From the NCBI GenBank assembly GCA_964494105.1, contig CAZBQI010000001.1, positions 67,126 through 131,125 of the forward strand: 64,000 bases of DNA, given 5' to 3'. Each line of letters starts with the position of its first letter. The first letter of the stretch is position 1. Positions 9-60,267 of this stretch are shown piece after piece. A program made the translations under genes and the position numbers. Source of the DNA: an uncultured Candidatus Saccharibacteria bacterium (GTDB taxonomy: Bacteria > Patescibacteriota > Saccharimonadia > CAZBQI01). The notes under the pieces are model-generated. The model had not been told where the DNA came from and did no database searches. It saw nothing but the letters and a program-made list of their open reading frames with translations.

Positions 9-323
9 ATGGAAAACCGGGATGATATTTTAAGTCTCTGGCCGGAACTGCACAAAGTAGTTTTTGAAAATGACAAAGCTAGAGTAATCAAATCATCTTT
101 ACCACCGGGTAAAAAACTATCCATGCATTGGCATCCCAGTCACGTCGGAATTATTGTTAAAGGCAGTCGAGTCAAGATTACTAAGCCAAATTCTGAACCC
201 GAAGAAGTGGACGTTGAGGACGGTGCATTTTTTGAAGGAAGAGAGGGTACTCATGCTGTTGAGAACATTGGTACAACAACCATAGAAGAGTACTTTATTG
301 AATTTAAGTTGAAAAATGGCTGA
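9..323 (+). CDS. cupin-domain protein
   Basis: 104-aa ORF. Conserved-His beta-barrel pattern (HWHPSHVGIIVKG ... GTHAVEN) typical of small cupins. Confidence 0.5.
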   Translation: MENRDDILSLWPELHKVVFENDKARVIKSSLPPGKKLSMHWHPSHVGIIVKGSRVKITKPNSEPEEVDVEDGAFFEGREGTHAVENIGTTTIEEYFIEFKLKNG

Positions 324-11453: not shown

Positions 11454-14400
11454 ATGTCTAAGCCAAAACAATCAAACGCGCCCAAGAGCAATCTTAAAGT
11501 TCCTGATAATTCGCCGGTTACAGGGGCCGATTATTCAAATGCGGTCGGGACGCTACTATTAGAGAATTCAAAAAACAGCGCTCGTTTGCGACGTTGGGGT
11601 CTTTTAATGCTAGGGCTTCAGCTCGCCGGAGCAGCCCTACTAATAGTTACTGGATTGTCGTTCTTTAATACCTACTACAGCCAAAAGAATATCGAAAAAA
11701 TAAAGAAAGACCCACTTGGCGAAGTAAAGATAGATTTCCAAGACATTGCCAAAGGATCGATTGGGTTTGATCAGCTTGATCCAGGCGTTATTACCAAAAT
11801 TGAACAGATAGATCGCACTCTTTTAGGTCAGCAAGGTAAGGTTGGCCCCCAGGGGCCGGCCGGCTCGACAACCGGTTCGGTGATTAGTGTTGGGTCAGGC
11901 GCCGGCCTTACCGGTGGCACAATAACATCGCGCGGCACATTAGCAATTAGCGCACCAACCTGCGCCGCTAATGAACGGCTTAGCTGGACTGGCACGGCAT
12001 TTGCCTGCCAAGCTGTTGCCTCCGGCACTGCCTCCGGCACCAGCCCGATTGTGTTCGATAGCAACACTGGCGATATAAGTTGCCCCACGTGCCTGACTAC
12101 AGTTGGTATTGCGTTTTCGGCAGCAGCCGATAGTGGTACAGACCAAAATTTGAATATTGGCGATACCCTAAGCTTAATTGGTGGTAACGGTATTTCTACC
12201 GCTGCGTCACTTAGCAATAACATCACCTTTAGCCTTGTCGATACTGCCGTCACGCCCGGTTTCTATGGTACCACCAGCTCTGTACCGTCGTTTACCGTTG
12301 ATGCCCAAGGCCGAATAACTGCTGCCAGTGATACGGCGATTAGTATTAATGCCAGTGCTATTTCTGCGGGAACTCTATCTGTTACCCGTGGTGGTACCGG
12401 TGTCGATGGCTCAGGTGCTACCAATGGCCAGCTCCTGATTGGTAACGGCAGTGGTTACAGTTTAGCTAATCTTACGGCTACCGGTCCTTTGGGCGTTACC
12501 AATGGTGCCGGCACCATAAACCTCACTTGTGCAACTTGTGTTACGACCAGTGGTAACGGTGCCATTACCAGTTCTGGTGGCGATGTCACATTAAGCGGTA
12601 CTACAACTGGCCGGTTAATTGGCTCGGGCAATGTTAACTTTGATCTATCTTCTACCGGAGTGGTGGGTGCTACCTACGGTTCAGCCAGTTCAGTACCCGT
12701 CTTTACAGTTGATGGTAAGGGCCGCATTACTTCAGCCAGTAATACGGCGATTGCTGGTTTAACTAGTTCTAATTTATCGGGCAGTGCTGCCATCACTAAT
12801 GCCCAGTTACAAAATAGCGTTATCACCTTTAATTCGGGTAACGGCTTAACTGGTGGCGGGGCGGTGTCGCTTGGCGGCAGTACTAGCTTGGCCATTAGTG
12901 CGCCTACTTGTCTTTCAAACGAACGGCTTAGTTGGAGCGGGTCGGCCTTTACCTGCGCAACCGTTGCTGCAGGCGGTAGCCAGGCGGCGAACACCTTTTT
13001 TGCTGGGCCGAGCTCCGGCGGTGCGGCGGCGCCTGGTTTTCGCGGAATTGTTGCAGCCGATTTAGGTACCGGCACAGCTAATTCGCAATCCGTTTTGGCC
13101 GGTAACCAAACTTGGCTGCCATTGCTTGATGGCGGCGGCAAGATTTTAACCAGCCTATTGCCTGCCAGTGGTTTAAATTATCAAGGATCTTGGAACGCTA
13201 ATACCAATACGCCAAGCTTAAGTAGTAGTGGCGGCGGTGGCGTACAGGGCGATTTTTATATTATTGACGTGGCAGGAACAACCTCGATTGATGGTAATAG
13301 CACGTGGAACGTTGGCGACTGGATTCTAAATAATGGCGCAACATGGGATCGGATATCAAATACAAATGCGGTTAGTAGTGTTAATGGTCAAACTGGCGCG
13401 GTAGTACTAGATAGTGATGATGTATCGGAAGGCGTCAGTAACTTGTACTTTACCAATGCTCGTGCCCGCGGGGCACTATCCGGCACCGGGCCGATTAGTT
13501 ACAATTCCGGCACTGGAGTAATTGATTGCCCAACCTGTGTTACCACTAGTGGTAACGGGGATATTGTTTCCGGTACAGGCCTATCAATATCTGGCACAAC
13601 TACTGGACGACTCATTGGTACTGGCAATGTGACTTTTGGCTTGTCGACGGCTGTACCAACAAGTGTAGTAAACGACACCAACGTTACGGGCTCGATTTCG
13701 GCTAATGCTTTGACGCTGGGTTGGACTGGTCAACTATCAACAGCCCGTGGTGGTACCGGTGTCGATGGCTCAGGTGCTACCAATGGCCAGCTCCTGATTG
13801 GTAACGGCAGTGGTTACAGTTTAGCTAATCTTACGGCTACCGGTCCTTTGGGCGTTACCAATGGTGCCGGCACCATAAACCTCACTTGTGCAACTTGTGT
13901 TACGACCAGTGGTAACGGTGCCATTACCAGTTCTGGTGGCGATGTCACATTAAGCGGTACTACAACTGGCCGGTTAATTGGCTCGGGCAATGTTAACTTT
14001 GATCTATCTTCTACCGGAGTGGTGGGTGCTACCTACGGTTCAGCCAGTTCAGTACCCGTCTTTACAGTTGATGGTAAGGGCCGCATTACTTCAGCCTCCA
14101 ACACCGCCATTGCCCTAAACGCCTCTGCCATTACCGCCGGTACCCTCAGTGTTACCCGTGGCGGTACCGGAGTAGATGGTTCCGGCGCCACCAACGGCCA
14201 GCTGTTGATCGGTAACGGTACGGGGTACTCTTTGGCCACGCTAGCCTCATCCGGGCCTATTGGTATTACTAACTCCGCTGGTGGCATTAGTATTGGTTGT
14301 GCAACCTGCCTAACAACCGGTACAACCTTATTTACCGCGGCTGGTGATGTTGGTGTAAACCAAAGCGTGACCCAGGGCCAAACCATTACCTTTATTGGTG

Positions 14401-16385
14401 GCGTTGGTTTAACCACTACAGGTTCTGCTACCCGAAATATGACAATAGATTTGGATAATACCGCCGTCACCCCCGGTTCCTATGGTACTGCTAGTTCAGT
14501 AGGCTCATTTACTGTAGATGCGCAGGGACGAATTATCGCTGCTAGCAACTCATCGATATCTATCAACGCCAGCGCAATTACAGCCGGCACCGGGTCGGTA
14601 TCATTCACTTCTGCAACATCCAATGCAATTTCGCTCGACTCTGGAACAACCGGCGGGATAAATATTGGAACAGGTGCGAACTCGAAGACCATTACCATCG
14701 GTAACACTACCGGTACAACCGGTATTAACATCGACTCCGGTAGCGGTAACATTAATTTGCGTCCTGGTGGTTCCGGGACAACCGCTAATGTCCAAATAGG
14801 TGCTGGCGGGGCTGGCTCGACAACGCCCGATTTATTGGTGCTTGATAGAAAAAGTAGTGCCGGTGACCCTGCCGGTACCAACGGTGCAATGTATTATAAT
14901 GCTAGCTCAAATAAATTCCGTTGTTTCGAAAACTCCACCTGGAGGGACTGTATCAAGGGGTCAATAAACCTTGGTCATGCGGCCACCTACGACACGAACG
15001 AAGCCCTTACTAATGTGGCAGCTTCTCAGGTGACTCTCGGTACGGTATCTGTTACGCCAGCATCGGATACTGGTGATGTCTATGTAACTGGCAACGCGGA
15101 TGTCTATAGTAGCAACAATACCGACCAAACATTTGTATTTACCATAGAAACCGGGTCAACTTGTACCGGTACGACTGTGGCGACAAGGTCATATACAATT
15201 ACTGCATCGAACTCCGCAACGGTAGGCCGTGGCTCACTTGTAGTAAGTGGTATTGTCTCTGACCCCGGTGAGTCTTCGCAGGCATATTCACTCTGCGCAT
15301 CAACTGCAACAGGTGATACCGATGTTCTGAACTGGCGTATCGAAGCATTGGTTATTGAATCAGCAGGTGCTGATGTTGCGGAGATGTATTATACGCACGA
15401 TGATGCCCGGCCCGGCGAAGTTGTAAGTATTGACGGCAGTATGAAGGCTGGTGTTCGTAGATCAAACGGCTCGTACGATCCTATGGTGTTGGGTATTATA
15501 AGCACAAAGCCAGGGTACGTTCTTGCTGATGCTGAGGGGGTCGACCCTACGGCTAGGCCGGTTATACTGGCTCTTGCCGGTCGTGTTCCAGTCAAAGTTT
15601 CGGACGAAAATGGGCCAATAAAGGCTGGCGATGCGCTGACACCATCGTCGATACCGGGCGTGGCTATGAAAGCTACCCAAAACGGCTGGGTACTTGGCGT
15701 AGCCATAGAAGACCAAAAGCCAGGAGCGGGCACCTTGATGACTTTTGTGAATAGATCTTGGTATACAGGGGGCAGTAATAACCCCCCCTCACTGACCGGT
15801 ATGAGTTTAGGCGATGCAGATTTACCTGGCATAAAATCAGCCCAATCCGAAGGTGTAAAGAACGGCTTGCAATCAGAAAATCCGGAGTTGGTTGCTCAAG
15901 CTTTGGGCATTTTAAATGATATTCAAAATACGGTGGTAACCCAGCAAACCCAGCTCAACGCACTTGAAGCTAATCAAGCCAAAGCCAGCTCGAATTCACA
16001 GCAGATTAACCAAGCGATATTTAATGGCGGTATTGTGGCCGGCGATGTAGAGTTCCAAGGCAACGCCACCTTTAATGCTATCGCCACATTCAAGGGTCAG
16101 AGTGTCTTTAAGGGGGGTGCTATATTTGAAGGAGACGTAGCAATTAATGGGCGCGTGAAGTTCGGTGCTAATGGATCGGGCGTGGCAACTGTACCAGCCG
16201 GCGCCACGAGCGTTACAGTTAGCTTTACTAGCCCGTATGACGGACGGCCAATTGTAAACTTAACTCCTATAGATTACGACGGGAAATTCAAACTTAGTGG
16301 CGCATCGGCCGGTGGCTTTACGATTGTACTAGATTCGCCCGTGCCAAGCCCGGTAGAGTTTAACTGGTTAGCGAGTGAAAATTAA
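11454..16385 (+). CDS. giant (1643 aa) membrane-anchored repeat fibre protein (tail-fibre-like beta repeats)
   Basis: A cytoplasmic N-terminus of about 50 aa is followed by one TM helix (LLMLGLQLAGAALLIVTGLSFF). A short Gly-X-Y run follows (GQQGKVGPQGPAG). There are then many Gly/Thr/Ser-rich repeats carrying recurring CPTC / CATC motifs, including a protein-level repeat present in two exact copies. The C-terminal part is non-repetitive, with a coiled-coil-like segment (LNALEANQAKASS). Confidence 0.7.
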   Translation: MSKPKQSNAPKSNLKVPDNSPVTGADYSNAVGTLLLENSKNSARLRRWGLLMLGLQLAGAALLIVTGLSFFNTYYSQKNIEKIKKDPLGEVKIDFQDIAKGSIGFDQLDPGVITKIEQIDRTLLGQQGKVGPQGPAGSTTGSVISVGSGAGLTGGTITSRGTLAISAPTCAANERLSWTGTAFACQAVASGTASGTSPIVFDSNTGDISCPTCLTTVGIAFSAAADSGTDQNLNIGDTLSLIGGNGISTAASLSNNITFSLVDTAVTPGFYGTTSSVPSFTVDAQGRITAASDTAISINASAISAGTLSVTRGGTGVDGSGATNGQLLIGNGSGYSLANLTATGPLGVTNGAGTINLTCATCVTTSGNGAITSSGGDVTLSGTTTGRLIGSGNVNFDLSSTGVVGATYGSASSVPVFTVDGKGRITSASNTAIAGLTSSNLSGSAAITNAQLQNSVITFNSGNGLTGGGAVSLGGSTSLAISAPTCLSNERLSWSGSAFTCATVAAGGSQAANTFFAGPSSGGAAAPGFRGIVAADLGTGTANSQSVLAGNQTWLPLLDGGGKILTSLLPASGLNYQGSWNANTNTPSLSSSGGGGVQGDFYIIDVAGTTSIDGNSTWNVGDWILNNGATWDRISNTNAVSSVNGQTGAVVLDSDDVSEGVSNLYFTNARARGALSGTGPISYNSGTGVIDCPTCVTTSGNGDIVSGTGLSISGTTTGRLIGTGNVTFGLSTAVPTSVVNDTNVTGSISANALTLGWTGQLSTARGGTGVDGSGATNGQLLIGNGSGYSLANLTATGPLGVTNGAGTINLTCATCVTTSGNGAITSSGGDVTLSGTTTGRLIGSGNVNFDLSSTGVVGATYGSASSVPVFTVDGKGRITSASNTAIALNASAITAGTLSVTRGGTGVDGSGATNGQLLIGNGTGYSLATLASSGPIGITNSAGGISIGCATCLTTGTTLFTAAGDVGVNQSVTQGQTITFIGGVGLTTTGSATRNMTIDLDNTAVTPGSYGTASSVGSFTVDAQGRIIAASNSSISINASAITAGTGSVSFTSATSNAISLDSGTTGGINIGTGANSKTITIGNTTGTTGINIDSGSGNINLRPGGSGTTANVQIGAGGAGSTTPDLLVLDRKSSAGDPAGTNGAMYYNASSNKFRCFENSTWRDCIKGSINLGHAATYDTNEALTNVAASQVTLGTVSVTPASDTGDVYVTGNADVYSSNNTDQTFVFTIETGSTCTGTTVATRSYTITASNSATVGRGSLVVSGIVSDPGESSQAYSLCASTATGDTDVLNWRIEALVIESAGADVAEMYYTHDDARPGEVVSIDGSMKAGVRRSNGSYDPMVLGIISTKPGYVLADAEGVDPTARPVILALAGRVPVKVSDENGPIKAGDALTPSSIPGVAMKATQNGWVLGVAIEDQKPGAGTLMTFVNRSWYTGGSNNPPSLTGMSLGDADLPGIKSAQSEGVKNGLQSENPELVAQALGILNDIQNTVVTQQTQLNALEANQAKASSNSQQINQAIFNGGIVAGDVEFQGNATFNAIATFKGQSVFKGGAIFEGDVAINGRVKFGANGSGVATVPAGATSVTVSFTSPYDGRPIVNLTPIDYDGKFKLSGASAGGFTIVLDSPVPSPVEFNWLASEN
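12385..12737 (+). repeat. 353-bp perfect direct repeat, copy 1 (inside the giant gene)
   Basis: Identical by eye, base for base, to 13744-14096. Encodes RGGTGVDGSGATNGQLLIGNGSGYSLANLTATGPLGVTNGAGTINLTCATCVTT... Confidence 0.9.
13744..14096 (+). repeat. 353-bp perfect direct repeat, copy 2 (inside the giant gene)
   Basis: Identical to 12385-12737. The offset is 1359 bp, a multiple of 3. A third copy diverged at synonymous sites starts near 14157. Confidence 0.9.
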
Positions 16386-16457: not shown

Positions 16458-18830
16458 ATGAAACAGAGAACATCTTGGGCACACCCTGTTAAGAGATTGC
16501 CATTTTCTAATCGCTTAAATCTATTAGAATTTGACAACAAGGTTGTAGCAGCCGAATTTTTGCGTAAAAAGAAAATTGGCCAAAACACCTACGAATTTAA
16601 ATTTGCATTGCATCGTAGCATTAAATATGTGCCTGGCCAATATGTTTGGCTTAATCTGCCGCAATTGCGGGCAACAGATAAGAAAGGCGCACGGCGAGCA
16701 ATGTCTATCGTGTATGTGGGGGCTGGCAATAAAGAGATTTCTATCGCAATGAGAATAAGCGATAGTAGTTTCAAGAAAGCTGCATTGCGGCTTACTTCGG
16801 GACAACAGGTAGAAATTATCGGGCCTAATGGTTCTTCTTTTTGCTTGCCGGAAAATGGAAAACAATCAGTTGTGCTTATTGCTGGCGGCACAGGTATTGC
16901 TCCGTTTGTAAACTTAGTACAAAATGAAGAATATAAAAAATCGAAAAGGACAATTCACCTTTTCTATACAGATGAGGGTGGCAATAGTGCGCCATATTTA
17001 GGTTTACTTAACAAAATAAAGTTAAACAACTATCACTTAAAATTTAGCCAAGTGCCTTTTGCTGAAAATGATTTTGCAGGAATTCATGAGTCGATGCGAG
17101 CAATATATTATCTAAGCGGACCTCAGAAATTTGTTGATTTCTACTACCGATTACTTAGCGGTATGGGAATTGCAAAATCAAGCATGAGGTTTGAAAATTT
17201 CTACCCAAGTAATGATGTTGTAGAGCTTATGCAACAGCTGTTTCGCGATGGCGATGCAATAAAACCCGTACCTGGAGATACCAAATTAGCCATTCAGCGG
17301 CGCGATATTTTGCTATCGGCAATACAAAGCTCATCACACCACATAGTCATCACTGACATTAATGGCGTTATTGTACTGGCAAACAAAGCTGCAGAAAGAA
17401 TAACAGGTTTTAGTTTTTACGAAATGGAAGGGCAAACACCACGCCTGTGGGGAGGGCTAATGCCTGTAAATTTCTATTCCAAACTATGGAACAGTAAGCT
17501 ACACGGGCTAACAATTGACGAAGAGATTGTTAACCGGCGTAAAGACGGATCGCTTTACTTGGTTATGTCGCACATTTCACCGATAAAAAATAAGCATGGC
17601 AAGGCGATAGGGTTTATTGGCACTGAAGAGGACATTACCCTGAACCGTCAAAAAGAAATCGAATCAAACACCATAGCTGAACAACTGGAGTCGACATTAT
17701 TAGGGATTGCCGAAGGTCTAATAATCACTGACGGTAAAGGAAGAATACAGCGGGTAAATGCAGCAGCTTGTAGCATGTTAGGTTATAGCCAAAAAGAGCT
17801 AGTTGGTAAAAATGCGAATGATGCTATTGAAATGCTTGATTCGAAAGAAGTCCCGATACCAAAAAATGAACGGATCACCAGCAGAGTAATCTCAAGTTCG
17901 GCGCCAGTAGTAACTGAAGATATTGCAAACAGCATATATTACCGAAAAAAGGACGGAACTAAGTTTCCCGTATATGTTGCGGCTTCACCAGTAATAGAAA
18001 ACAGTCGAATGGTTGGTTCTGTAGAAATATTTAGAGACATAAGTCGAGATAAAGAAATTGACATTGCAAAATCAGAGTTCGTATCTTTAGCTTCGCATCA
18101 GTTGCGTACTCCACTCTCGGCCATTAATTGGAATGCGGAACTCTTAATGGGAGGAGATGCGGGTAAGTTAACCGCTGACCAAGCGAACTTCGTAAAGGAA
18201 ATTTACAGTAGTAGTCAAAGAATGGTGGATCTAGTCAGGTCATTACTAAACGTCTCTCGTATCGAGCTTGGTACACTTGGTTTTGATCCATCGCCACAAA
18301 ATGTAAACGAATTGATAAAGGCAATTATGGCAGACGAAAGACTGCTTCGTGATAAAGAAGAAATTTCAGTTAAACTCAATCTTTCAAAAATACCTAGGAT
18401 ACCTGTCGATCCAAGACTAGTTACGCTACTAGTGCAAAATCTTGGTAGTAATGCTATTAAGTACTCGAAACATGGTGGCGAAATTATTGTGACAAGTGAA
18501 TATCTGGCAAATCCTTCAAAAAGAAAGAATTTTAGAAAAAAAGGTATAAAAATCCCAAGTGTATATTTGTGTTTTAAAGATAGTGGTATTGGTATTCCAA
18601 AAGAACAGCAAAAAAATATATTTTCAAAAATGTTCCGAGCTGATAACGCCCAGGAGCAAGTAACTGATGGTAATGGTTTGGGCTTGTATATGGTTAAGGG
18701 GATTGTCGAGAGCATTGATGGCAAAATATGGTTTGAATCTAGCGTAAAAAATGGCACAAGTTTCCACGTATTATTGCCACTTGAAGGCTTGGCCAAAAAG
18801 GATTCAGGTATAAAACTACTTGATGTATAA
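16458..18830 (+). CDS. soluble sensor histidine kinase: ferredoxin-reductase-like FAD/NAD(P) module + 2 PAS + HisKA + HATPase
   Basis: The N-terminus has an FNR-type FAD-binding signature (RAMSIVY, i.e. RxYS-like) and the NAD-binding motif GGTGIAPF. Two PAS-like regions follow. The H-box is SHQLRTPL, the N-box NLGSNAIKYS, and the G-boxes DSGIGIP and GNGLGL. No TM helix. Confidence 0.8.
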   Translation: MKQRTSWAHPVKRLPFSNRLNLLEFDNKVVAAEFLRKKKIGQNTYEFKFALHRSIKYVPGQYVWLNLPQLRATDKKGARRAMSIVYVGAGNKEISIAMRISDSSFKKAALRLTSGQQVEIIGPNGSSFCLPENGKQSVVLIAGGTGIAPFVNLVQNEEYKKSKRTIHLFYTDEGGNSAPYLGLLNKIKLNNYHLKFSQVPFAENDFAGIHESMRAIYYLSGPQKFVDFYYRLLSGMGIAKSSMRFENFYPSNDVVELMQQLFRDGDAIKPVPGDTKLAIQRRDILLSAIQSSSHHIVITDINGVIVLANKAAERITGFSFYEMEGQTPRLWGGLMPVNFYSKLWNSKLHGLTIDEEIVNRRKDGSLYLVMSHISPIKNKHGKAIGFIGTEEDITLNRQKEIESNTIAEQLESTLLGIAEGLIITDGKGRIQRVNAAACSMLGYSQKELVGKNANDAIEMLDSKEVPIPKNERITSRVISSSAPVVTEDIANSIYYRKKDGTKFPVYVAASPVIENSRMVGSVEIFRDISRDKEIDIAKSEFVSLASHQLRTPLSAINWNAELLMGGDAGKLTADQANFVKEIYSSSQRMVDLVRSLLNVSRIELGTLGFDPSPQNVNELIKAIMADERLLRDKEEISVKLNLSKIPRIPVDPRLVTLLVQNLGSNAIKYSKHGGEIIVTSEYLANPSKRKNFRKKGIKIPSVYLCFKDSGIGIPKEQQKNIFSKMFRADNAQEQVTDGNGLGLYMVKGIVESIDGKIWFESSVKNGTSFHVLLPLEGLAKKDSGIKLLDV

Positions 18831-56502: not shown

Positions 56503-57237
56503 ATGAAAAAAGCTCGACTAGATGAGATTGTTTTTAAGCGAGGCTATGCTACCTCCAAAACTCAAGCAGCAGCACTTATTATGGCTGGCAGTGTATTTGT
56601 CGAGGGCAAATTACACACTAAACCAGGGCACTCATTGCCAGCGGATGTAGAAATTCACTTAAAAGAGGCCCAACGCTACGTGAGTCGAGCTGCCCTAAAA
56701 CTGGAAAGCGTAGTACAGAAGCTTTCGTTGCATTTCAAAGACAAGGTAGTTCTAGATATCGGTTCCTCTACCGGTGGCTTTACCGATTACGCCTTGCAAC
56801 ATGGGGCAAAAAAGGTATATGCAATTGATGTAGGAACTAATCAGCTCGACTCTCGCTTGCGTGGAAACGAAAAAATTGACTTGCGCGAGAAGACTGATAT
56901 TCGAGACGTACACGAACTGCCAGATAAAATCGACATCGCCCTAGCAGATGTGTCTTTTATAAGCTTGCGAAAGATTTTGCCTGGTATTAGGCAGTTGCTA
57001 AAGCCAAATGCAATGATTGTCGCCATGGTTAAGCCGCAGTTTGAAGCCGACAGGCAAACGGCCAGTATGCATAAAGGTGTTATTAAGAACAATCGGATAA
57101 GGCGAGAAATCTTGAGGCAGTTCGAAGACTGGACGAAAAGCGACTTTATAATTGATGCCAAGGCAGATTCAGCGGTGGCCGGAGCAAAAGGTAATGTTGA
57201 GCGATTCTATCTGTTACGAGTAGTAAAAAAGCTTTAA
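56503..57237 (+). CDS. tlyA: TlyA-family rRNA 2'-O-methyltransferase (S4 domain + FtsJ-like MTase)
   Basis: An N-terminal S4 RNA-binding region (RLDEIVFKRGYATSKTQAAALIMAGSVFVEG) and the SAM motif VVLDIGSSTGGFTD. Confidence 0.8.
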   Translation: MKKARLDEIVFKRGYATSKTQAAALIMAGSVFVEGKLHTKPGHSLPADVEIHLKEAQRYVSRAALKLESVVQKLSLHFKDKVVLDIGSSTGGFTDYALQHGAKKVYAIDVGTNQLDSRLRGNEKIDLREKTDIRDVHELPDKIDIALADVSFISLRKILPGIRQLLKPNAMIVAMVKPQFEADRQTASMHKGVIKNNRIRREILRQFEDWTKSDFIIDAKADSAVAGAKGNVERFYLLRVVKKL

Positions 57238-57271: not shown

Positions 57272-57967
57272 ATGCTTAATACCTTACCGACAAATGTAAT
57301 ACCATCCTTCTTAATCGGTTTGTCTAGCGTGTTTTTCGGTATACGGGGATTGTTACACTATCGACGCTTGCGTTCGCCACTTTCGCTTTATTATTCGCTA
57401 TGTGCCTTATTTGTAGGAATCTCCGCACTATTTTACTCATTGCCATTTGTGTTTACCCAGGCGGATGTACCACTCAAAACGACCACCATTATTGGCGATC
57501 TTTTTTACTACGCAACAGCCGTAATGTGCGGAAGAATAATCTGGTATTTGGGATTAAAGAAAAGGGTGGCTTTTGGTTGGGTATTGGCGCCAATACTGGC
57601 AATATGTACTTTTTCGCTAATCGTGTTCGTTGTCGATATTCAGCAGCTTACCTACCAGGTGGTAGATGGATTGGCAGATTATCCCATACCCCCGTTCTCT
57701 AGCTGGCTAATGGCATTTATTACATTACTAATAATAATTGTAGCTGTTTTGACTATTATTCAAGCCAAAGTCATCGAGGATGCGCGCCAAAGATATAGAT
57801 TGTATTCGATCGGGATTGCCTTTGGGTTGGGCGGTATATTTGCCATAATTAATTTCTTGTTTTTTCAGGGCAATAACTCTTCACCAATCTCCATTATTGG
57901 CTACATTGTTGCAGCATCTATACTGTTTTTTGGGCTGGTTTTTGTAAGTCGGCGTAGTTCGAGATAG
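57272..57967 (+). CDS. 7-TM membrane protein of unknown family (tandem paralog A)
   Basis: 231 aa with seven predicted helices. Blocks conserved with the downstream paralog include GLRG..RYRSL.SPL..YYSL and IGD.(L/F)YY. Confidence 0.5.
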   Translation: MLNTLPTNVIPSFLIGLSSVFFGIRGLLHYRRLRSPLSLYYSLCALFVGISALFYSLPFVFTQADVPLKTTTIIGDLFYYATAVMCGRIIWYLGLKKRVAFGWVLAPILAICTFSLIVFVVDIQQLTYQVVDGLADYPIPPFSSWLMAFITLLIIIVAVLTIIQAKVIEDARQRYRLYSIGIAFGLGGIFAIINFLFFQGNNSSPISIIGYIVAASILFFGLVFVSRRSSR

Positions 57968-57974
57968 ACCGAGG

Positions 57975-58667
57975 ATGTTTAATATGCCTTCAAACGTATT
58001 ACCGCTGTTCTTTCTGGCACTTGGATCTCTAGCGCTTGGATTGCGGGGCATTATGCGTTATCGGTCATTGAAATCACCGTTAATTATGTACTATTCGCTA
58101 GCAGCTATACTAATCGGTGCAGCTGCGTTAGTTTACTCGTTGCCATTTACATTTTTCGATGACAGTCGGAGCTTAAAAATTGCTATCACTATAGGCGATG
58201 TATTGTACTATGTCGGTATTCTAATGGTGGTCAAAATAATATGGTATTTACGACTCAAGCAAAGAAAGGTGCCGTTTTTAATAGTGGCTGTGCCGGTCGG
58301 CCTAGTCGCCGGATTTTCTTTCTTGATTGATCTATTTTATCGCCAAGATCAAATATATGGGGTATTTAACAATGTGGCCACGTACCCAACATCGCCGGTT
58401 GCACTCAGCCTGCTGGCGCTACTAAGCTCATCAATTATAATTTGCGGTTTTCTGACAATTACTGAGGGGGTAAAAATCAACGATAAGCGCCAACGCTGGC
58501 GTTTATTTAGCATTGGCACAATGATGCTACTTGGCGGAATCGTGGCGGTTAACAACTTTTTATTCCTGCAAGGAACGAATAACAATACGGCATCCTTGGT
58601 AGGCTATGCTATGGTTTTCTGGCTATTTTTAAGCGGGCTGTTGTTCGTGCGTAAATCTAAACATTGA
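57975..58667 (+). CDS. 7-TM membrane protein of unknown family (tandem paralog B)
   Basis: 230 aa. Paralog of 57272-57967 with the same 7-TM layout and conserved blocks. It lies 7 nt downstream and overlaps the ychF end convergently. Confidence 0.5.
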   Translation: MFNMPSNVLPLFFLALGSLALGLRGIMRYRSLKSPLIMYYSLAAILIGAAALVYSLPFTFFDDSRSLKIAITIGDVLYYVGILMVVKIIWYLRLKQRKVPFLIVAVPVGLVAGFSFLIDLFYRQDQIYGVFNNVATYPTSPVALSLLALLSSSIIICGFLTITEGVKINDKRQRWRLFSIGTMMLLGGIVAVNNFLFLQGTNNNTASLVGYAMVFWLFLSGLLFVRKSKH

Positions 58668-59730
58668 ACCTGAATTCAACCACGTCGCCCTCGTGCATAA
58701 TGTAATCTTTGCCTTCGGTTCGGACCTTGCCTTTGCTCCGAGCCTCAGCCAATGAGCCGGCCGATATTAAGTCTTCATAATTCACAATCTCAGCTGCAAT
58801 AAAACCGCGCTCAAAGTCACCATGAATTACGCCGGCTGCTTGTGGTGCAGTGTCGCCCTTATGAATAGTCCAGGCACGAACTTCTTTCTGACCGGCAGTT
58901 AGATATGTTTGTAGGCCAAGTGTTTCATAGGCCACACGTACCAGTTCTTCTAGCCCGGAGTGTTTTAGTCCAAACTCAGCTAGCAATTCTGCACCCTCAG
59001 CAGGCTCCATTTGGGCTAGCTCGGCCTCTAGCTTGGCGCAAATAAATGCAGACTTGGCTGGGGCTACCAGCTTAGTTAATTCATCTTGCTTTGCGGTGTC
59101 ACTCAAACCTTCCTCATCTAGGTTGAAAACATATATAAAGGGCTTAGTTGTCAGTAGGTTTAGCTGGGCTAGTGGGGTGGCATCGAGTTCGGTTTTTGAT
59201 AGTAATTTACCTTCATCTAAATGCTTTTTGGCTATCTCTAAATGGGCAACTTCCGACTTAATTTTTGGGTCGGCTTTAGCTTGTTTTTGCAACCGCGAAA
59301 TAGCCGACTCTACCGTTTGAAGGTCGGCGAGGATTAGCTCGGTGTGTATGGTATCGACATCGTCGCTCGGATTTATTTGGTTAGCCACATGAGTCACGTT
59401 GTCATCCTCGAAGGCTCGCACCACCTGTACAATAGCGCTGGTCTCCCTGATGTGGGCGAGGAACTGATTGCCCAGGCCTTCGCCTTTGCTGGCCCCAGCC
59501 ACTAGGCCGGCGATATCCACAAACGTTACCGTTGCTGGAATAATTTTTTCGGTCTGGTACAGATTTGCCAGTTTCTCTAAACGCTCATCCGGCACTGCCA
59601 CAATGCCGGTATTTGGCTCAATCGTGGCAAAGGGGTAGTTAGCCGCCAGCACGTTATTGCGGGTAAGTGCATTAAAAAGCGTAGATTTCCCTACGTTGGG
59701 CAAGCCGACGATACCTAGAGTTAAAGCCAT
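58657..59730 (-). CDS. ychF: ribosome-binding ATPase YchF (Obg-like)
   Basis: G1 motif GIVGLPNVGKSTLFNALT, the motif ANYPFATIEPN, and a C-terminal TGS domain. Confidence 0.9.
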   Translation of the reverse strand: MALTLGIVGLPNVGKSTLFNALTRNNVLAANYPFATIEPNTGIVAVPDERLEKLANLYQTEKIIPATVTFVDIAGLVAGASKGEGLGNQFLAHIRETSAIVQVVRAFEDDNVTHVANQINPSDDVDTIHTELILADLQTVESAISRLQKQAKADPKIKSEVAHLEIAKKHLDEGKLLSKTELDATPLAQLNLLTTKPFIYVFNLDEEGLSDTAKQDELTKLVAPAKSAFICAKLEAELAQMEPAEGAELLAEFGLKHSGLEELVRVAYETLGLQTYLTAGQKEVRAWTIHKGDTAPQAAGVIHGDFERGFIAAEIVNYEDLISAGSLAEARSKGKVRTEGKDYIMHEGDVVEFRFNV

Positions 59731-59811: not shown

Positions 59812-60267
59812 ATGAGTACTATTGAACAACCAAATGCCCCTGAATCATCTGAACCTACAGCAGTCGATCTTGGCAACGCTATTGTTCAAGCCTGGTCCTG
59901 GCATACCGATGCGTTAGCACAAACACCAACGCACAATGCTTATAAACTTGTTCTTGATAGCGAGACAGCTGGCTCTCCGGCGACATTAGCGATTGAACCC
60001 ACAGTTGGCGCAGATGTAGAGAGTGGCTTAGTATTCGTTGAGCGAGCAACGAAGCATCACCCACCAGAGACATTTATGCTAATACGTGATCCGAAGGGAG
60101 CAGTTTTGACAAGAGTTGATAAGCGCGGAAAACAACTTAAAATACTACCAACAGCAGATACAGATGTTTCAGAGCTAACACATGCTATTGCCACGGGCAC
60201 TTTGCACTCGCCACGAAAGCGGTCGGCACAGGCAATCAGTCGGCTACTATTTCACAGCCGGCATTAA
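59812..60267 (+). CDS. hypothetical protein
   Basis: 151-aa ORF divergent from ychF. No recognisable motif. Confidence 0.3.
   Translation: MSTIEQPNAPESSEPTAVDLGNAIVQAWSWHTDALAQTPTHNAYKLVLDSETAGSPATLAIEPTVGADVESGLVFVERATKHHPPETFMLIRDPKGAVLTRVDKRGKQLKILPTADTDVSELTHAIATGTLHSPRKRSAQAISRLLFHSRH

Follow-up and report, generated by a model that had tools for sequence, protein, structure and literature searches.

Within the window, by which we mean the whole stretch of 64,000 nt that was analysed, two adjacent genes (here called A and B) encode small polytopic membrane proteins and lie between tlyA and ychF (Table 1). The initial annotation had described them as two genes for proteins of 231 and 230 aa separated by 7 nt. 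Both reading frames are present on the plus strand, but the start of B and the size of the gap should be revised. The true start of B is most likely the second ATG, which would shorten the protein to 227 residues, since this ATG is preceded by a Shine-Dalgarno-like motif and since it is the start used by gene callers on identical contigs. With this start, the intergenic gap becomes 16 nt. The same motif also supports co-transcription of B with A. A promoter and terminator scan found no promoter- or terminator-like sites above chance between tlyA, A and B, and an Rfam scan of the whole window gave no match.

Table 1. Coordinates of the genes and features discussed in the text (nucleotide positions in the window; residue numbers for the helices of A).
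Feature	Position	Strand	Description
tlyA	56503..57237	+	S4 + FtsJ rRNA methyltransferase; Pfam FtsJ 4.3e-33, S4 5.5e-07; 34 nt from A
Gene A	57272..57967	+	ORF of 231 aa; stand-alone 7-TM protein, N-out/C-in
Shine-Dalgarno-like GAGG	57971..57974	+	Read from sequence; 9 nt 5' of the ATG at 57984
Gene B	57984..58667 (mechanical ORF from 57975, 230 aa)	+	227 aa; paralogous to A and of the same architecture
ychF	58657..59730	-	Ribosome-binding ATPase; Pfam YchF-GTPase_C 1.8e-37, MMR_HSR1; 11-nt overlap of its 3' end with B
Helices of A	7-33, 36-61, 65-94, 101-123, 141-167, 171-198, 205-225		AlphaFold2 model

The two proteins share 43% identity over 225 residues (BLASTP, E 4e-46), in line with the tandem paralogy proposed earlier. 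Judging from the orthologue relationships, B is no fresh duplicate of A: it has a separate orthologue of its own (P0009, 50% identity, bootstrap 100), and the orthologue of A is P0002 (65% identity). Public assemblies also contain a protein 100% identical to A.

As first described, the pair lies directly downstream of tlyA. In Saccharibacteria the 7TM genes occupy a fixed slot, efp-(tlyA)-7TM-ychF, which holds one or two 7TM copies, and ychF is the convergent downstream neighbour in every Saccharibacteria locus covering that side (L001, L003-L016). The tlyA gene is found in the slot of some relatives (L008) and is missing from others (L005, L011-L016). Thus, with regard to conservation of the pair after tlyA, the slot between efp/tlyA and ychF is kept, but the linkage to tlyA itself is not, since several species have the slot without this gene. 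We regard tlyA as genomic context, not as a demonstrated functional partner. In the cultivated, host-associated Southlakia epibionticum the conserved slot contains no 7TM gene. The slot lies a few kb from pilM/pilN, a loose proximity that is not retained beyond Saccharibacteria.

Hydropathy analysis revealed seven hydrophobic segments in A as well as in B, and the AlphaFold2 models contain seven helices each, which agrees with the layout originally reported. The model of A (pLDDT 87.2, pTM 0.85) is a compact bundle in which the TM4-TM5 loop, on the outside, forms a beta-hairpin (residues 129-136), and the model of B (pLDDT 94.8, pTM 0.90) displays the same hairpin. The fold class can be taken as established at a coarse level. 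Only 6 residues precede TM1 and about 6 follow TM7. Lys and Arg residues are biased towards the inside (12 inside versus 1 outside in A, 14 versus 3 in B), which places both proteins in an N-out/C-in orientation. All of the sequence blocks reported as shared are present, although two had been misspelled, as A reads GIRG and B reads QRWRL. The blocks common to the two proteins are G(I/L)RG..(H/R)YR(R/S)L(R/K)SPL, YYSL, IGD(L/V)(F/L)YY and QR(Y/W)RL(Y/F)SIG.

When 1.84 billion protein representatives were searched exhaustively, 114 relatives were retrieved in total. They range from 79 to 262 aa (approximately 220-262 aa when full-length), all stand alone, with termini of no more than 10 residues, and none of the 114 is fused to a signalling domain or reaches the length of a kinase. 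Relatives with a source name derive from Patescibacteria, save one from a MAG labelled Dormibacteraeota. A and B are real, conserved members of a small and previously undescribed family that is almost entirely restricted to Patescibacteria and extends beyond this one genome. Genomes carry 1 to 4 copies, and tandem pairs recur in other lineages. The family diverges rapidly, with approximately 20% identity between orders and frequent lineage-specific duplications. Among 7 Saccharibacteria members, 42 alignment columns are invariant, and dN/dS is 0.04-0.18 for both the upstream and the downstream copies; by this measure both copies are under strong purifying selection.

Across the family, conservation falls mostly on Pro, Gly and Trp residues, together with N8, D76, N194 and basic residues on the cytoplasmic side. 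The conserved small residues are G15, G23, G75, G158, G181 and G188. No polar position is invariant in the 95-member alignment, and no conserved set of His, Ser, Cys or Glu residues hinting at catalysis was found family-wide. D76 in TM3 is the single family-wide acidic position, occupied by D or E in 72% of members and by another residue in 28%; the earlier statement on conserved charged residues in TM3 applies to this position but not, across the family, to the others. Specificity positions that distinguish the upstream from the downstream orthologue group were uninformative, as there were only 9, which did not cluster, on the outer face or elsewhere.

No model in Pfam-A (2025), NCBIfam (2026), PADLOC or PHROGs reached threshold with A, B or three consensus sequences, the Pfam and PHROGs scans being run additionally with all 95 members. 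Likewise, the family profile had no match among PDB sequences at E <= 10. The proteins can thus still be called an unrecognised 7-TM family. The families that the initial annotation had set aside on motif grounds stay aside: a motif check of A and B found no Lys in TM7, where microbial rhodopsins and heliorhodopsins bind retinal, and no HxxxH, GxSG or EExxxR, and no Pfam match linked them to the rhomboids or to the CPBP (Abi) proteases. Bac_rhodopsin had no Pfam match to A, B or the family members. For HlyIII (PAQR) a Pfam match was equally lacking, the one His in each protein is not conserved, and the N terminus is outside, whereas PAQR topology is N-in. TMBIM can be set aside as well, as there was no Pfam Bax1-I match and no Asp in TM6 or TM7 that could form the C-terminal di-aspartyl pH sensor of that family. 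A 3+1+3 repeat of the SWEET/PnuC/PQ-loop type was not detected when TM1-3 was compared with TM5-7 (hhalign probability 2.3%). Among the best 50 Foldseek matches in the PDB there was no PAQR, TMBIM, rhodopsin, SWEET or PnuC structure.

Nor did a confident match to any other characterised 7-TM family emerge, the closest candidates being sub-threshold in sequence or borderline in structure. The best Pfam match was 7TMR-DISM_7TM (PF07695), which scored 14.2 bits with A (E 0.042), gave no match with B and reached 13-22 bits with the consensus sequences, all below its gathering cut-off of 29 bits. It was matched by 6/95 members at E <= 1 (best 0.0025), in an inconsistent register: A aligned co-linearly, whereas the family consensus placed TM5-7 on profile positions 49-152. 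Seven TM helices and an N-out/C-in orientation are common to this domain and A/B. However, true 7TMR-DISM_7TM proteins carry a DISMED1/2 domain outside the cell at the N-terminus and an output module in the cytoplasm at the C-terminus, and A and B have neither, given their short termini and relatives of at most 262 aa. RgsP exemplifies the bacterial 7-TM receptors with diverse intracellular signalling modules (PMC6107284).

At the level of the fold, the best 50 PDB matches of both models were GPCRs only, of classes A, B and C, and many of the best were peptide receptors. These matches should be interpreted with caution since they are borderline (E 1.5e-3 to 3e-2, TM 0.35-0.57, rmsd 6-9 A, 9-17% identity) and since the PDB is heavily enriched in GPCRs. 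Like A and B, the GPCRs of eukaryotes and viruses are N-out/C-in seven-helix bundles, and in peptide-binding class A GPCRs the TM4-TM5 loop is likewise a beta-hairpin; the resemblance is at fold level only. A and B are about 60 residues shorter, and the motifs DRY, NPxxY and CWxP were not seen in them by eye, TM3 ending in WYL. To our knowledge, heterotrimeric G proteins are absent from bacteria.

A precedent comes from the same phylum. In the Saccharibacterium Southlakia epibionticum, the histidine kinase SEML1_0678 is described as carrying an N-terminal HisKA_7TM domain (PF16927), whose model was assigned a 'Family A GPCR-like' fold (PMC10633639). HisKA_7TM resembles A and B in its size of approximately 220-240 residues, its seven helices and the GPCR-like fold call, and it is tied to histidine kinases, to which some members of the present family are adjacent. 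In contrast, it is fused to PAS, HisKA and HATPase domains, and the family of A and B is always stand-alone. The HisKA_7TM model matched neither A nor B at E <= 10, nor the family consensus sequences, and no kinases of this type were found in the DNA of all loci examined.

In a viral structure library the best folds were the Gordonia/Mycobacterium phage membrane proteins A0A7G9UZD0 and A0A7G8LIL3 (~240 aa; E 4e-4, TM 0.54/0.51), which align with A and B over their full length and are of similar size, but have no detectable sequence similarity to them. Sequence kinship with phage membrane proteins was rejected, as a tblastn search of 50,697 phage records was empty at E <= 10 and no PHROG recurred (each matched at most 1/95 members). 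The phage fold match adds no functional information, because the phage proteins are themselves uncharacterised.

Direct sampling outside Saccharibacteria covered seven arrangements of the 7TM gene. In five of these (L023, L025-L028) an orthologous histidine kinase of 556-560 aa, with 6 TM helices and PAS, HisKA and HATPase domains, abuts the 7TM gene in convergent orientation at gaps of -4 to +16 nt. In L019/L020 the two genes are 1.9 kb apart. In L017/L018 no orthologue of it is present, other PAS kinases lie in the surroundings and a stand-alone MASE1 protein abuts; L024 has no kinase. A kinase-led metagenome scan added six further abutting cases (L029-L033, L045). The outer flanks of the kinase-7TM loci differ between loci, identities in this comparison are 19-24% for the 7TM proteins and 34-44% for the kinases, and the 7TM-adjacent kinases form two separate clades (bootstrap 100 and 86). 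On the other hand, 74/80 loci of the kinase orthogroup have no adjacent 7TM gene, and many of these, including 10/10 of those read completely, have a membrane GT2 glycosyltransferase as their convergent neighbour. Kinase adjacency was absent from every Saccharibacteria locus examined. The only kinase in the window is located 40 kb from A and B; it was rejected as a missing partner since it is not orthologous to the 7TM-adjacent kinases and has an N-terminus resembling, weakly, an FNR-like soluble domain in place of a 7-TM domain. Short convergent ORFs beside other kinases, considered as hidden 7TM members, proved to be fragments of membrane GT2 glycosyltransferases, and the 6-TM domain of the kinase was rejected as a relative of the 7TM family (E > 0.3, hmmsearch --max). 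Given their convergent orientation, kinase and 7TM genes are not co-transcribed. Moreover, their adjacency could be preserved without a functional link, since no breakpoint between genes whose 3' ends overlap or abut would be neutral.

BceAB-BceS and UhpC-UhpB are transporter/kinase pairs in which an accessory membrane protein acts as a co-sensor for the histidine kinase. The kinase-adjacent loci described above (L023, L025-L033, L045) are comparable insofar as a separate polytopic protein lies beside a membrane kinase with no obvious periplasmic sensor. However, the genes of known co-sensors usually run in the same direction as the kinase gene or share its operon, and their products are members of recognised transporter families, whereas the 7TM genes are convergent, match no transporter family and are not paired with a kinase in the lineage of the window.

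We tentatively favor the hypothesis that A and B are stand-alone, receptor-like sensor modules, to which we assign a probability of about one in three. According to this hypothesis an external ligand would be bound by a predicted outward pocket, formed by the tops of TM1, TM2, TM3 and TM6 beneath the TM4-TM5 beta-hairpin; candidate pocket residues, read along the helices, are P6/N8, P58-x-x-F61-T62, G75-D76 and N194. As a 7TM protein without an output domain of its own, the sensor is proposed to signal through its conserved cytoplasmic face, comprising R25/Y30/R31 in loop 1, W91 at the end of TM3, and K/R174 and R176 before TM6, by contacting a separate partner protein. For two clades of other Patescibacteria this role would fall to the membrane PAS histidine kinase encoded directly next to the 7TM gene. 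The tandem pairs would then be subunits of a heteromer or sensors of different specificity.

Several lines of evidence support the receptor-like hypothesis: the constraint on both genes, seen in the invariant columns and the low dN/dS, the N-out/C-in seven-helix architecture with very short termini, the restriction of the best 50 Foldseek matches to GPCRs, the lack of both a transporter-type internal repeat and a family-wide set of catalytic residues, and the adjacency to kinases in some lineages together with the HisKA_7TM precedent. The borderline fold scores against a GPCR-rich PDB argue against it, as does the absence of a sequence-level tie to any bacterial 7TM sensor family and of signalling fusions. 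The kinase adjacency is itself missing from the window, from Saccharibacteria and from most loci of the kinase orthogroup, its convergent gene pairs preclude co-transcription, and the paralogue-specific positions do not gather on the outer face. In addition, the conserved cytoplasmic basic residues may be mere topology signals. A bolder version, in which the family constitutes a Patescibacteria-specific 'split' receptor system where GPCR-fold sensors of host or community cues signal in trans to a histidine kinase or other partner, with the tandem paralogues as heterodimers, we consider rather unlikely.

The initial annotation suggested a transporter or a receptor-like protein, naming the transporter first, and both possibilities are retained here. 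The proteins may instead be small secondary transporters, or channels, that pass an ion or a small metabolite, with D76, N8 and N194 lining the path and the paralogues differing in substrate; this is nearly as likely as a receptor-like sensor, and just as tentative. A compact 7-TM protein that has no soluble domain very often turns out to be a transporter, and Patescibacteria have to import most of their building blocks. A single membrane-embedded acidic residue is conserved, as are glycines that permit the tight helix packing of a channel, and both the variable copy number and the slot empty of a 7TM gene in one host-associated species fit this explanation. CPR-enriched families with >4 TM helices have moreover been suggested to be those that 'may be involved in transport' (Meheust et al. 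2019, PMC6744442). These points have to be set against the lack of a 3+1+3 or inverted repeat, the absence of any transporter among the best 50 Foldseek matches of either model, and the conservation of only one deep-membrane polar position family-wide. Beyond NMN_transporter, matched by 1/95 members (E 0.0067), no transporter family of Pfam or NCBIfam was found, and ABC, energising or substrate-metabolising genes are not consistent neighbours.

The predominance of structural Pro, Gly and Trp, the rapid divergence with its frequent duplications, the phage membrane proteins at the top of the viral fold list and the pil genes near the Saccharibacteria slot could also be accounted for by a membrane scaffold or cell-surface interaction protein (of the envelope, a pilus, phage reception, superinfection exclusion or host contact) that neither signals nor transports. 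We find this improbable, as no sequence links the family to phage proteins, PADLOC was negative, the low dN/dS argues against a surface protein engaged in an arms race, and the pil proximity is loose and lost outside Saccharibacteria. Least probable of all would be an enzyme embedded in the membrane that attacks a lipid or a polyprenyl-linked substrate, loosely in the manner of PAQR proteins or alkaline ceramidases, and in which D76, N8 and N194 would serve in catalysis or substrate binding. Hydrolases of the PAQR/CREST superfamily do combine seven TM helices with a GPCR-like bundle, one member of the family matched DUF3522 (E 7.3e-05), a viral ceramidase and a hemolysin-III-like protein appeared low in the BFVD list (TM ~0.5), and the membrane GT2, an envelope enzyme, fills the equivalent convergent slot of many kinase-orthogroup loci. 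Yet the family has neither HxxxH nor a conserved His, its topology is the opposite of that of PAQR, no polar position is invariant, D76 itself being replaced in more than a quarter of members, and no Pfam enzyme family reached threshold.

A large part of bacterial diversity belongs to the Patescibacteria, which live attached to other microbes or depend on them, and in which about half of the genes have no assigned function. That such a family exists is in itself unsurprising, since unannotated multi-TM families specific to Patescibacteria are already known to be common (PMC6744442). However, the constraint on this 7TM family, its receptor-like shape, its tandem pairs and its fixed place beside a kinase in some lineages make it a concrete candidate for sensing or uptake. 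If its members are transporters, they would help to explain how nutrients are acquired by cells with minimal biosynthesis. If they are stand-alone 7-TM sensors that work with a kinase, they would represent a new architecture in bacterial signal transduction. Should the split receptor system prove true, it would add a class of bacterial 7-TM receptors without a covalent output domain, in organisms that rely on sensing other cells.

The tandem 7-TM proteins described in the initial annotation are encoded by two ORFs, genes A and B, which we recovered at the reported coordinates, both on the plus strand. The proteins are unmistakably paralogous (BLASTP aligns 225 residues with one gap, 43% of them identical and 60% positive, E = 4e-46), and hydropathy gives seven segments in each. 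All the sequence blocks quoted earlier are present, and HxxxH, GxSG, EExxxR and a Lys in TM7 are, as had been stated, found in neither protein. The distribution of Lys+Arg between inside and outside (12 vs 1 in A, 14 vs 3 in B) places the N-terminus outside and the C-terminus inside. The 7-nt gap given between the genes requires revision: GAGG at 57971-57974 lies directly before the first ATG of B and 9 nt before the second, gene callers annotate the 227-aa form on identical public contigs, and several relatives likewise have an M-P-x-N start. For these reasons B most likely starts at 57984, and the gap becomes 16 nt. Upstream, Pfam matches give the order ftsK, a RodZ-like HTH protein, an EamA transporter, rpsF, ssb, rpsR, efp and tlyA; beyond B come ychF, which is convergent and shares 11 nt with B, then a 151-aa ORF and pilM/pilN. 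Unannotated ORFs of 164-166 aa occupy the equivalent post-ychF position in two related loci (L008, L009). Elsewhere, a 1643-aa ORF sits in the window's only GC-rich stretch (GC 0.50-0.51 at 12-16 kb; 0.37-0.47 in the other 2-kb windows).

Coordinates of the genes and loci discussed in the text
Feature	Location	Strand	Remarks
Gene A	57272-57967	+	ORF, 231 aa
Gene B	57975-58667	+	ORF, 230 aa; likelier start 57984, 227 aa
Window histidine kinase	16458-18830	+	790 aa; two PAS, HisKA, HATPase_c after N-terminal ~250 residues
151-aa ORF	59812-60267	+	between ychF and pilM; no Pfam match
1643-aa ORF	11454-16385	+	no Pfam match at E <= 1e-5
L015 tandem pair	CAZKFZ010000004.1; L015 6001-7436		in efp-ychF slot
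L021 tandem pair	CAZKFZ010000003.1; L021 5271-6693		among msrA, msrB, FMN reductase, aldo-keto reductase

The judgement that the family is unrecognized was upheld. Nothing reached threshold when A and B were compared with Pfam-A, NCBIfam, PADLOC and PHROGs, when 95 family members were searched singly against Pfam and PHROGs, or when three consensus sequences were searched against Pfam; the family profile found no PDB sequence at E <= 10, and no published description was found in the literature searched. The commonest weak match, 7TMR-DISM_7TM (14-22 bits; cut-off 29), is co-linear for A and displaced by about two to three helices for the consensus, a register shift typical of hydrophobic-composition matches. 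A word-indexed search of 5.8 billion proteins yielded 6 relatives, and an HMM search run exhaustively over 1.84 billion representatives clustered at 50% identity yielded 114, 54 of them at E <= 1e-10. Since all 114 are only 79-262 aa long (full-length members about 220-262 aa), none is fused to another domain. Any name carried in the source is always "hypothetical protein", from organisms given in two cases as Microgenomates and in one as a MAG with the label Dormibacteraeota; relatives from species-representative genomes belong to five Candidatus Saccharibacteria MAGs and one "Patescibacteria group bacterium". The family is restricted almost entirely to Patescibacteria. Mean column identity across the 95 members is 24%, and conservation exceeds 90% only at P6, P58 and W91, followed by N8, R/K25, Y30, R/K31, F61, T/S62, L68, G75, D/E76, G158, K/R174, R/K176, G181, G188, N194 and G200.

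In Saccharibacteria the 7TM genes occupy a fixed slot, rpsF-ssb-rpsR-efp-(tlyA)-7TM(-7TM)-ychF. The slot is what is conserved, and linkage to tlyA is not: tlyA is present in the window and L008-L009 and missing from L005 and L011-L016, and copy number varies between one (L004-L012) and two (the window, L001-L003, L013-L016). Tandem pairs also occur outside the slot, at L019/L020 in another Patescibacteria lineage and at L021/L022 in the Saccharibacteria MAG that carries L015, which gives that genome four copies. The genes around the L021 pair are of an oxidative-stress type. In a neighbor-joining tree, whose deeper nodes lack resolution, the upstream copies of L013-L016 cluster with the single-copy L005 and L012 genes (bootstrap 100), and this clade is sister (bootstrap 97) to one made up of the downstream copies of L013-L016 (bootstrap 100). 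Window A pairs with its ortholog P0002 (65% identity), and window B with its own ortholog P0009 (50% identity), both at bootstrap 100; the branching shows that not every duplicate is fresh. Comparison of orthologs gives dN/dS values below 0.07 among upstream copies, 0.04-0.12 among downstream copies and 0.18 between the single-copy L005 and L012 genes, from which it follows that each gene of a pair is functional. Southlakia epibionticum ML1, which is cultivated and host-associated, keeps the rpsF-ssb-rpsR-efp-tlyA-ychF-pilM block (SEML1_0097-0104), with a 1797-bp beta-lactamase-like serine hydrolase gene inserted between efp and tlyA and nothing between tlyA and ychF (PMC10633639). The 7TM gene is consequently missing from its slot, and Tn-seq in that organism does not bear on the gene.

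AlphaFold2 gave confident models of both proteins, with pLDDT 87.2 and pTM 0.85 for A from only 7 sequences, and pLDDT 94.8 and pTM 0.90 for B from 51. In each model seven long helices are flanked by very short termini, and the outside loop joining TM4 to TM5 contains a two-stranded beta-hairpin. When the models were compared with the PDB by Foldseek, every one of the top 50 matches to either was a GPCR, from class A, B or C and often a peptide receptor, at borderline scores (E 1.5e-3 to 3e-2, TM 0.35-0.57, rmsd 6-9 A); structures of PAQR, TMBIM, microbial rhodopsin, SWEET or PnuC type are absent from these 50. The predicted fold thus reads as a generic GPCR-like bundle, coarsely receptor-like, from which neither GPCR membership nor homology follows, and with GPCRs so over-represented in the PDB the apparent likeness is inflated. 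In the BFVD viral library the best two matches to the B model (57984-58664) are uncharacterized membrane proteins of about 240 aa from Gordonia phages Sephiroth and Rabbitrun (E 4e-4, TM 0.54/0.51); proteins of Gordonia phage Bantam and Mycobacterium phage Archie appear further down the list. No sequence-level link between the family and phages was detectable. The hosts of cultivated Saccharibacteria are Actinobacteria.

Outside Saccharibacteria we sampled seven arrangements of the 7TM gene directly. In five (L023, L025-L028) it is convergent with an abutting histidine kinase of 556-560 aa (gaps -4 to +16 nt; about 6 TM helices, then PAS, HisKA and HATPase), L025 and L027 having one whole neighborhood in common, and L026 and L028 one of the two flanks of the pair. 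At L019/L020 this kinase is 1.9 kb away from the 7TM gene; other PAS kinases, response regulators and a stand-alone MASE1 protein surround L017/L018, and L024 has no kinase at the locus. At L017 (6001-7754, GCA_035536395.1, labelled Candidatus Dormibacteraeota) the member, the only one found outside named Patescibacteria, is convergent with the abutting MASE1 membrane-sensor protein; several PAS histidine kinases, response regulators and a MEDS protein make this locus unusually signaling-dense. The kinases are orthologous (34-44% identity over full length), the adjacent 7-TM proteins share 19-24% with each other, and the outer flanks of the loci differ. Reciprocally, among 80 metagenomic loci collected with the kinase alignment, a 7TM member is convergent at -1 to +30 nt in six (L029-L033, L045), and 74 have no abutting member. 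In many of these 74 (within L034-L108) a membrane protein of some 375-510 aa takes the convergent position; GT2-glycosyltransferase-like motifs ("CIPARNE...LDD", C-terminal "WKGR") occur in 10 of 10 read fully, five being contig-end fragments, and the same kinase family appears to have here a second convergent partner that is conserved. In the kinase tree, whose deep nodes are weak (bootstrap 40-54), 7TM-adjacent kinases fall into two clades (bootstrap 100 and 86) parted by 61 non-adjacent kinases. The pairing is old, whether retained or recurrent, yet far from universal, and it could also have been kept neutrally, since no harmless breakpoint fits between 3' ends that abut. The window itself lacks this pairing; its sole kinase lies 40 kb from A and B and matches the orthogroup only in PAS and catalytic core. 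The soluble N-terminus of that kinase has weak FNR-type FAD_binding_6 and NAD_binding_1 matches (about 21 bits each, just below cut-offs), and the translation shows no evident hydrophobic stretch up to residue 300; the protein could be a cytoplasmic sensor kinase with a redox or flavin link.

Genes A and B are real and constrained, and any function has to be inferred. We rank first, at roughly one chance in three, that they encode a stand-alone receptor-like sensor or co-sensor; membrane topology and fold class favor this reading, as do the absence of both an internal repeat and a catalytic set, adjacency to kinases and a fused precedent in the phylum. A small transporter or channel, also tentative, comes a close second: compact polytopic proteins in auxotrophic organisms carry such a prior and D76 is a single buried acidic residue, but TM1-3 and TM5-7 show no internal repeat (hhalign probability 2.3%), which argues against a 3+1+3 transporter build. 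Action as a scaffold or surface-interaction protein seems unlikely. A membrane enzyme is more doubtful still; no His, Ser, Cys or Glu is conserved family-wide among the 95 members. Paralog-specific positions number only 9, scattered and without the outer-face clustering that would favor divergence in ligand specificity, and they do not discriminate.

The precedent that bears on the sensor reading is SEML1_0678, a histidine kinase of S. epibionticum in which residues 6-221 match Pfam HisKA_7TM (PF16927) by structure-based annotation (PMC10633639). The phylum thus has 7-TM sensor modules that are GPCR-like, equal in size and fused to kinases, whereas A, B and their relatives stand alone. The PF16927 model matches neither A nor B and no kinase-length relative occurs among the 114, so any relationship would lie beyond HMMER's reach. 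Meheust et al. 2019 listed 106 CPR-enriched families, eight with more than four TM helices (PMC6744442). Since CPR-specific, poorly annotated multi-TM families are already known, a new one with seven helices is plausible, and not startling, to the specialist. Members of the family hold a fixed slot in Saccharibacteria, and their stand-alone architecture, recurrent tandem pairs and partial linkage to kinases, in a subset of lineages, make them a reasonable experimental target.
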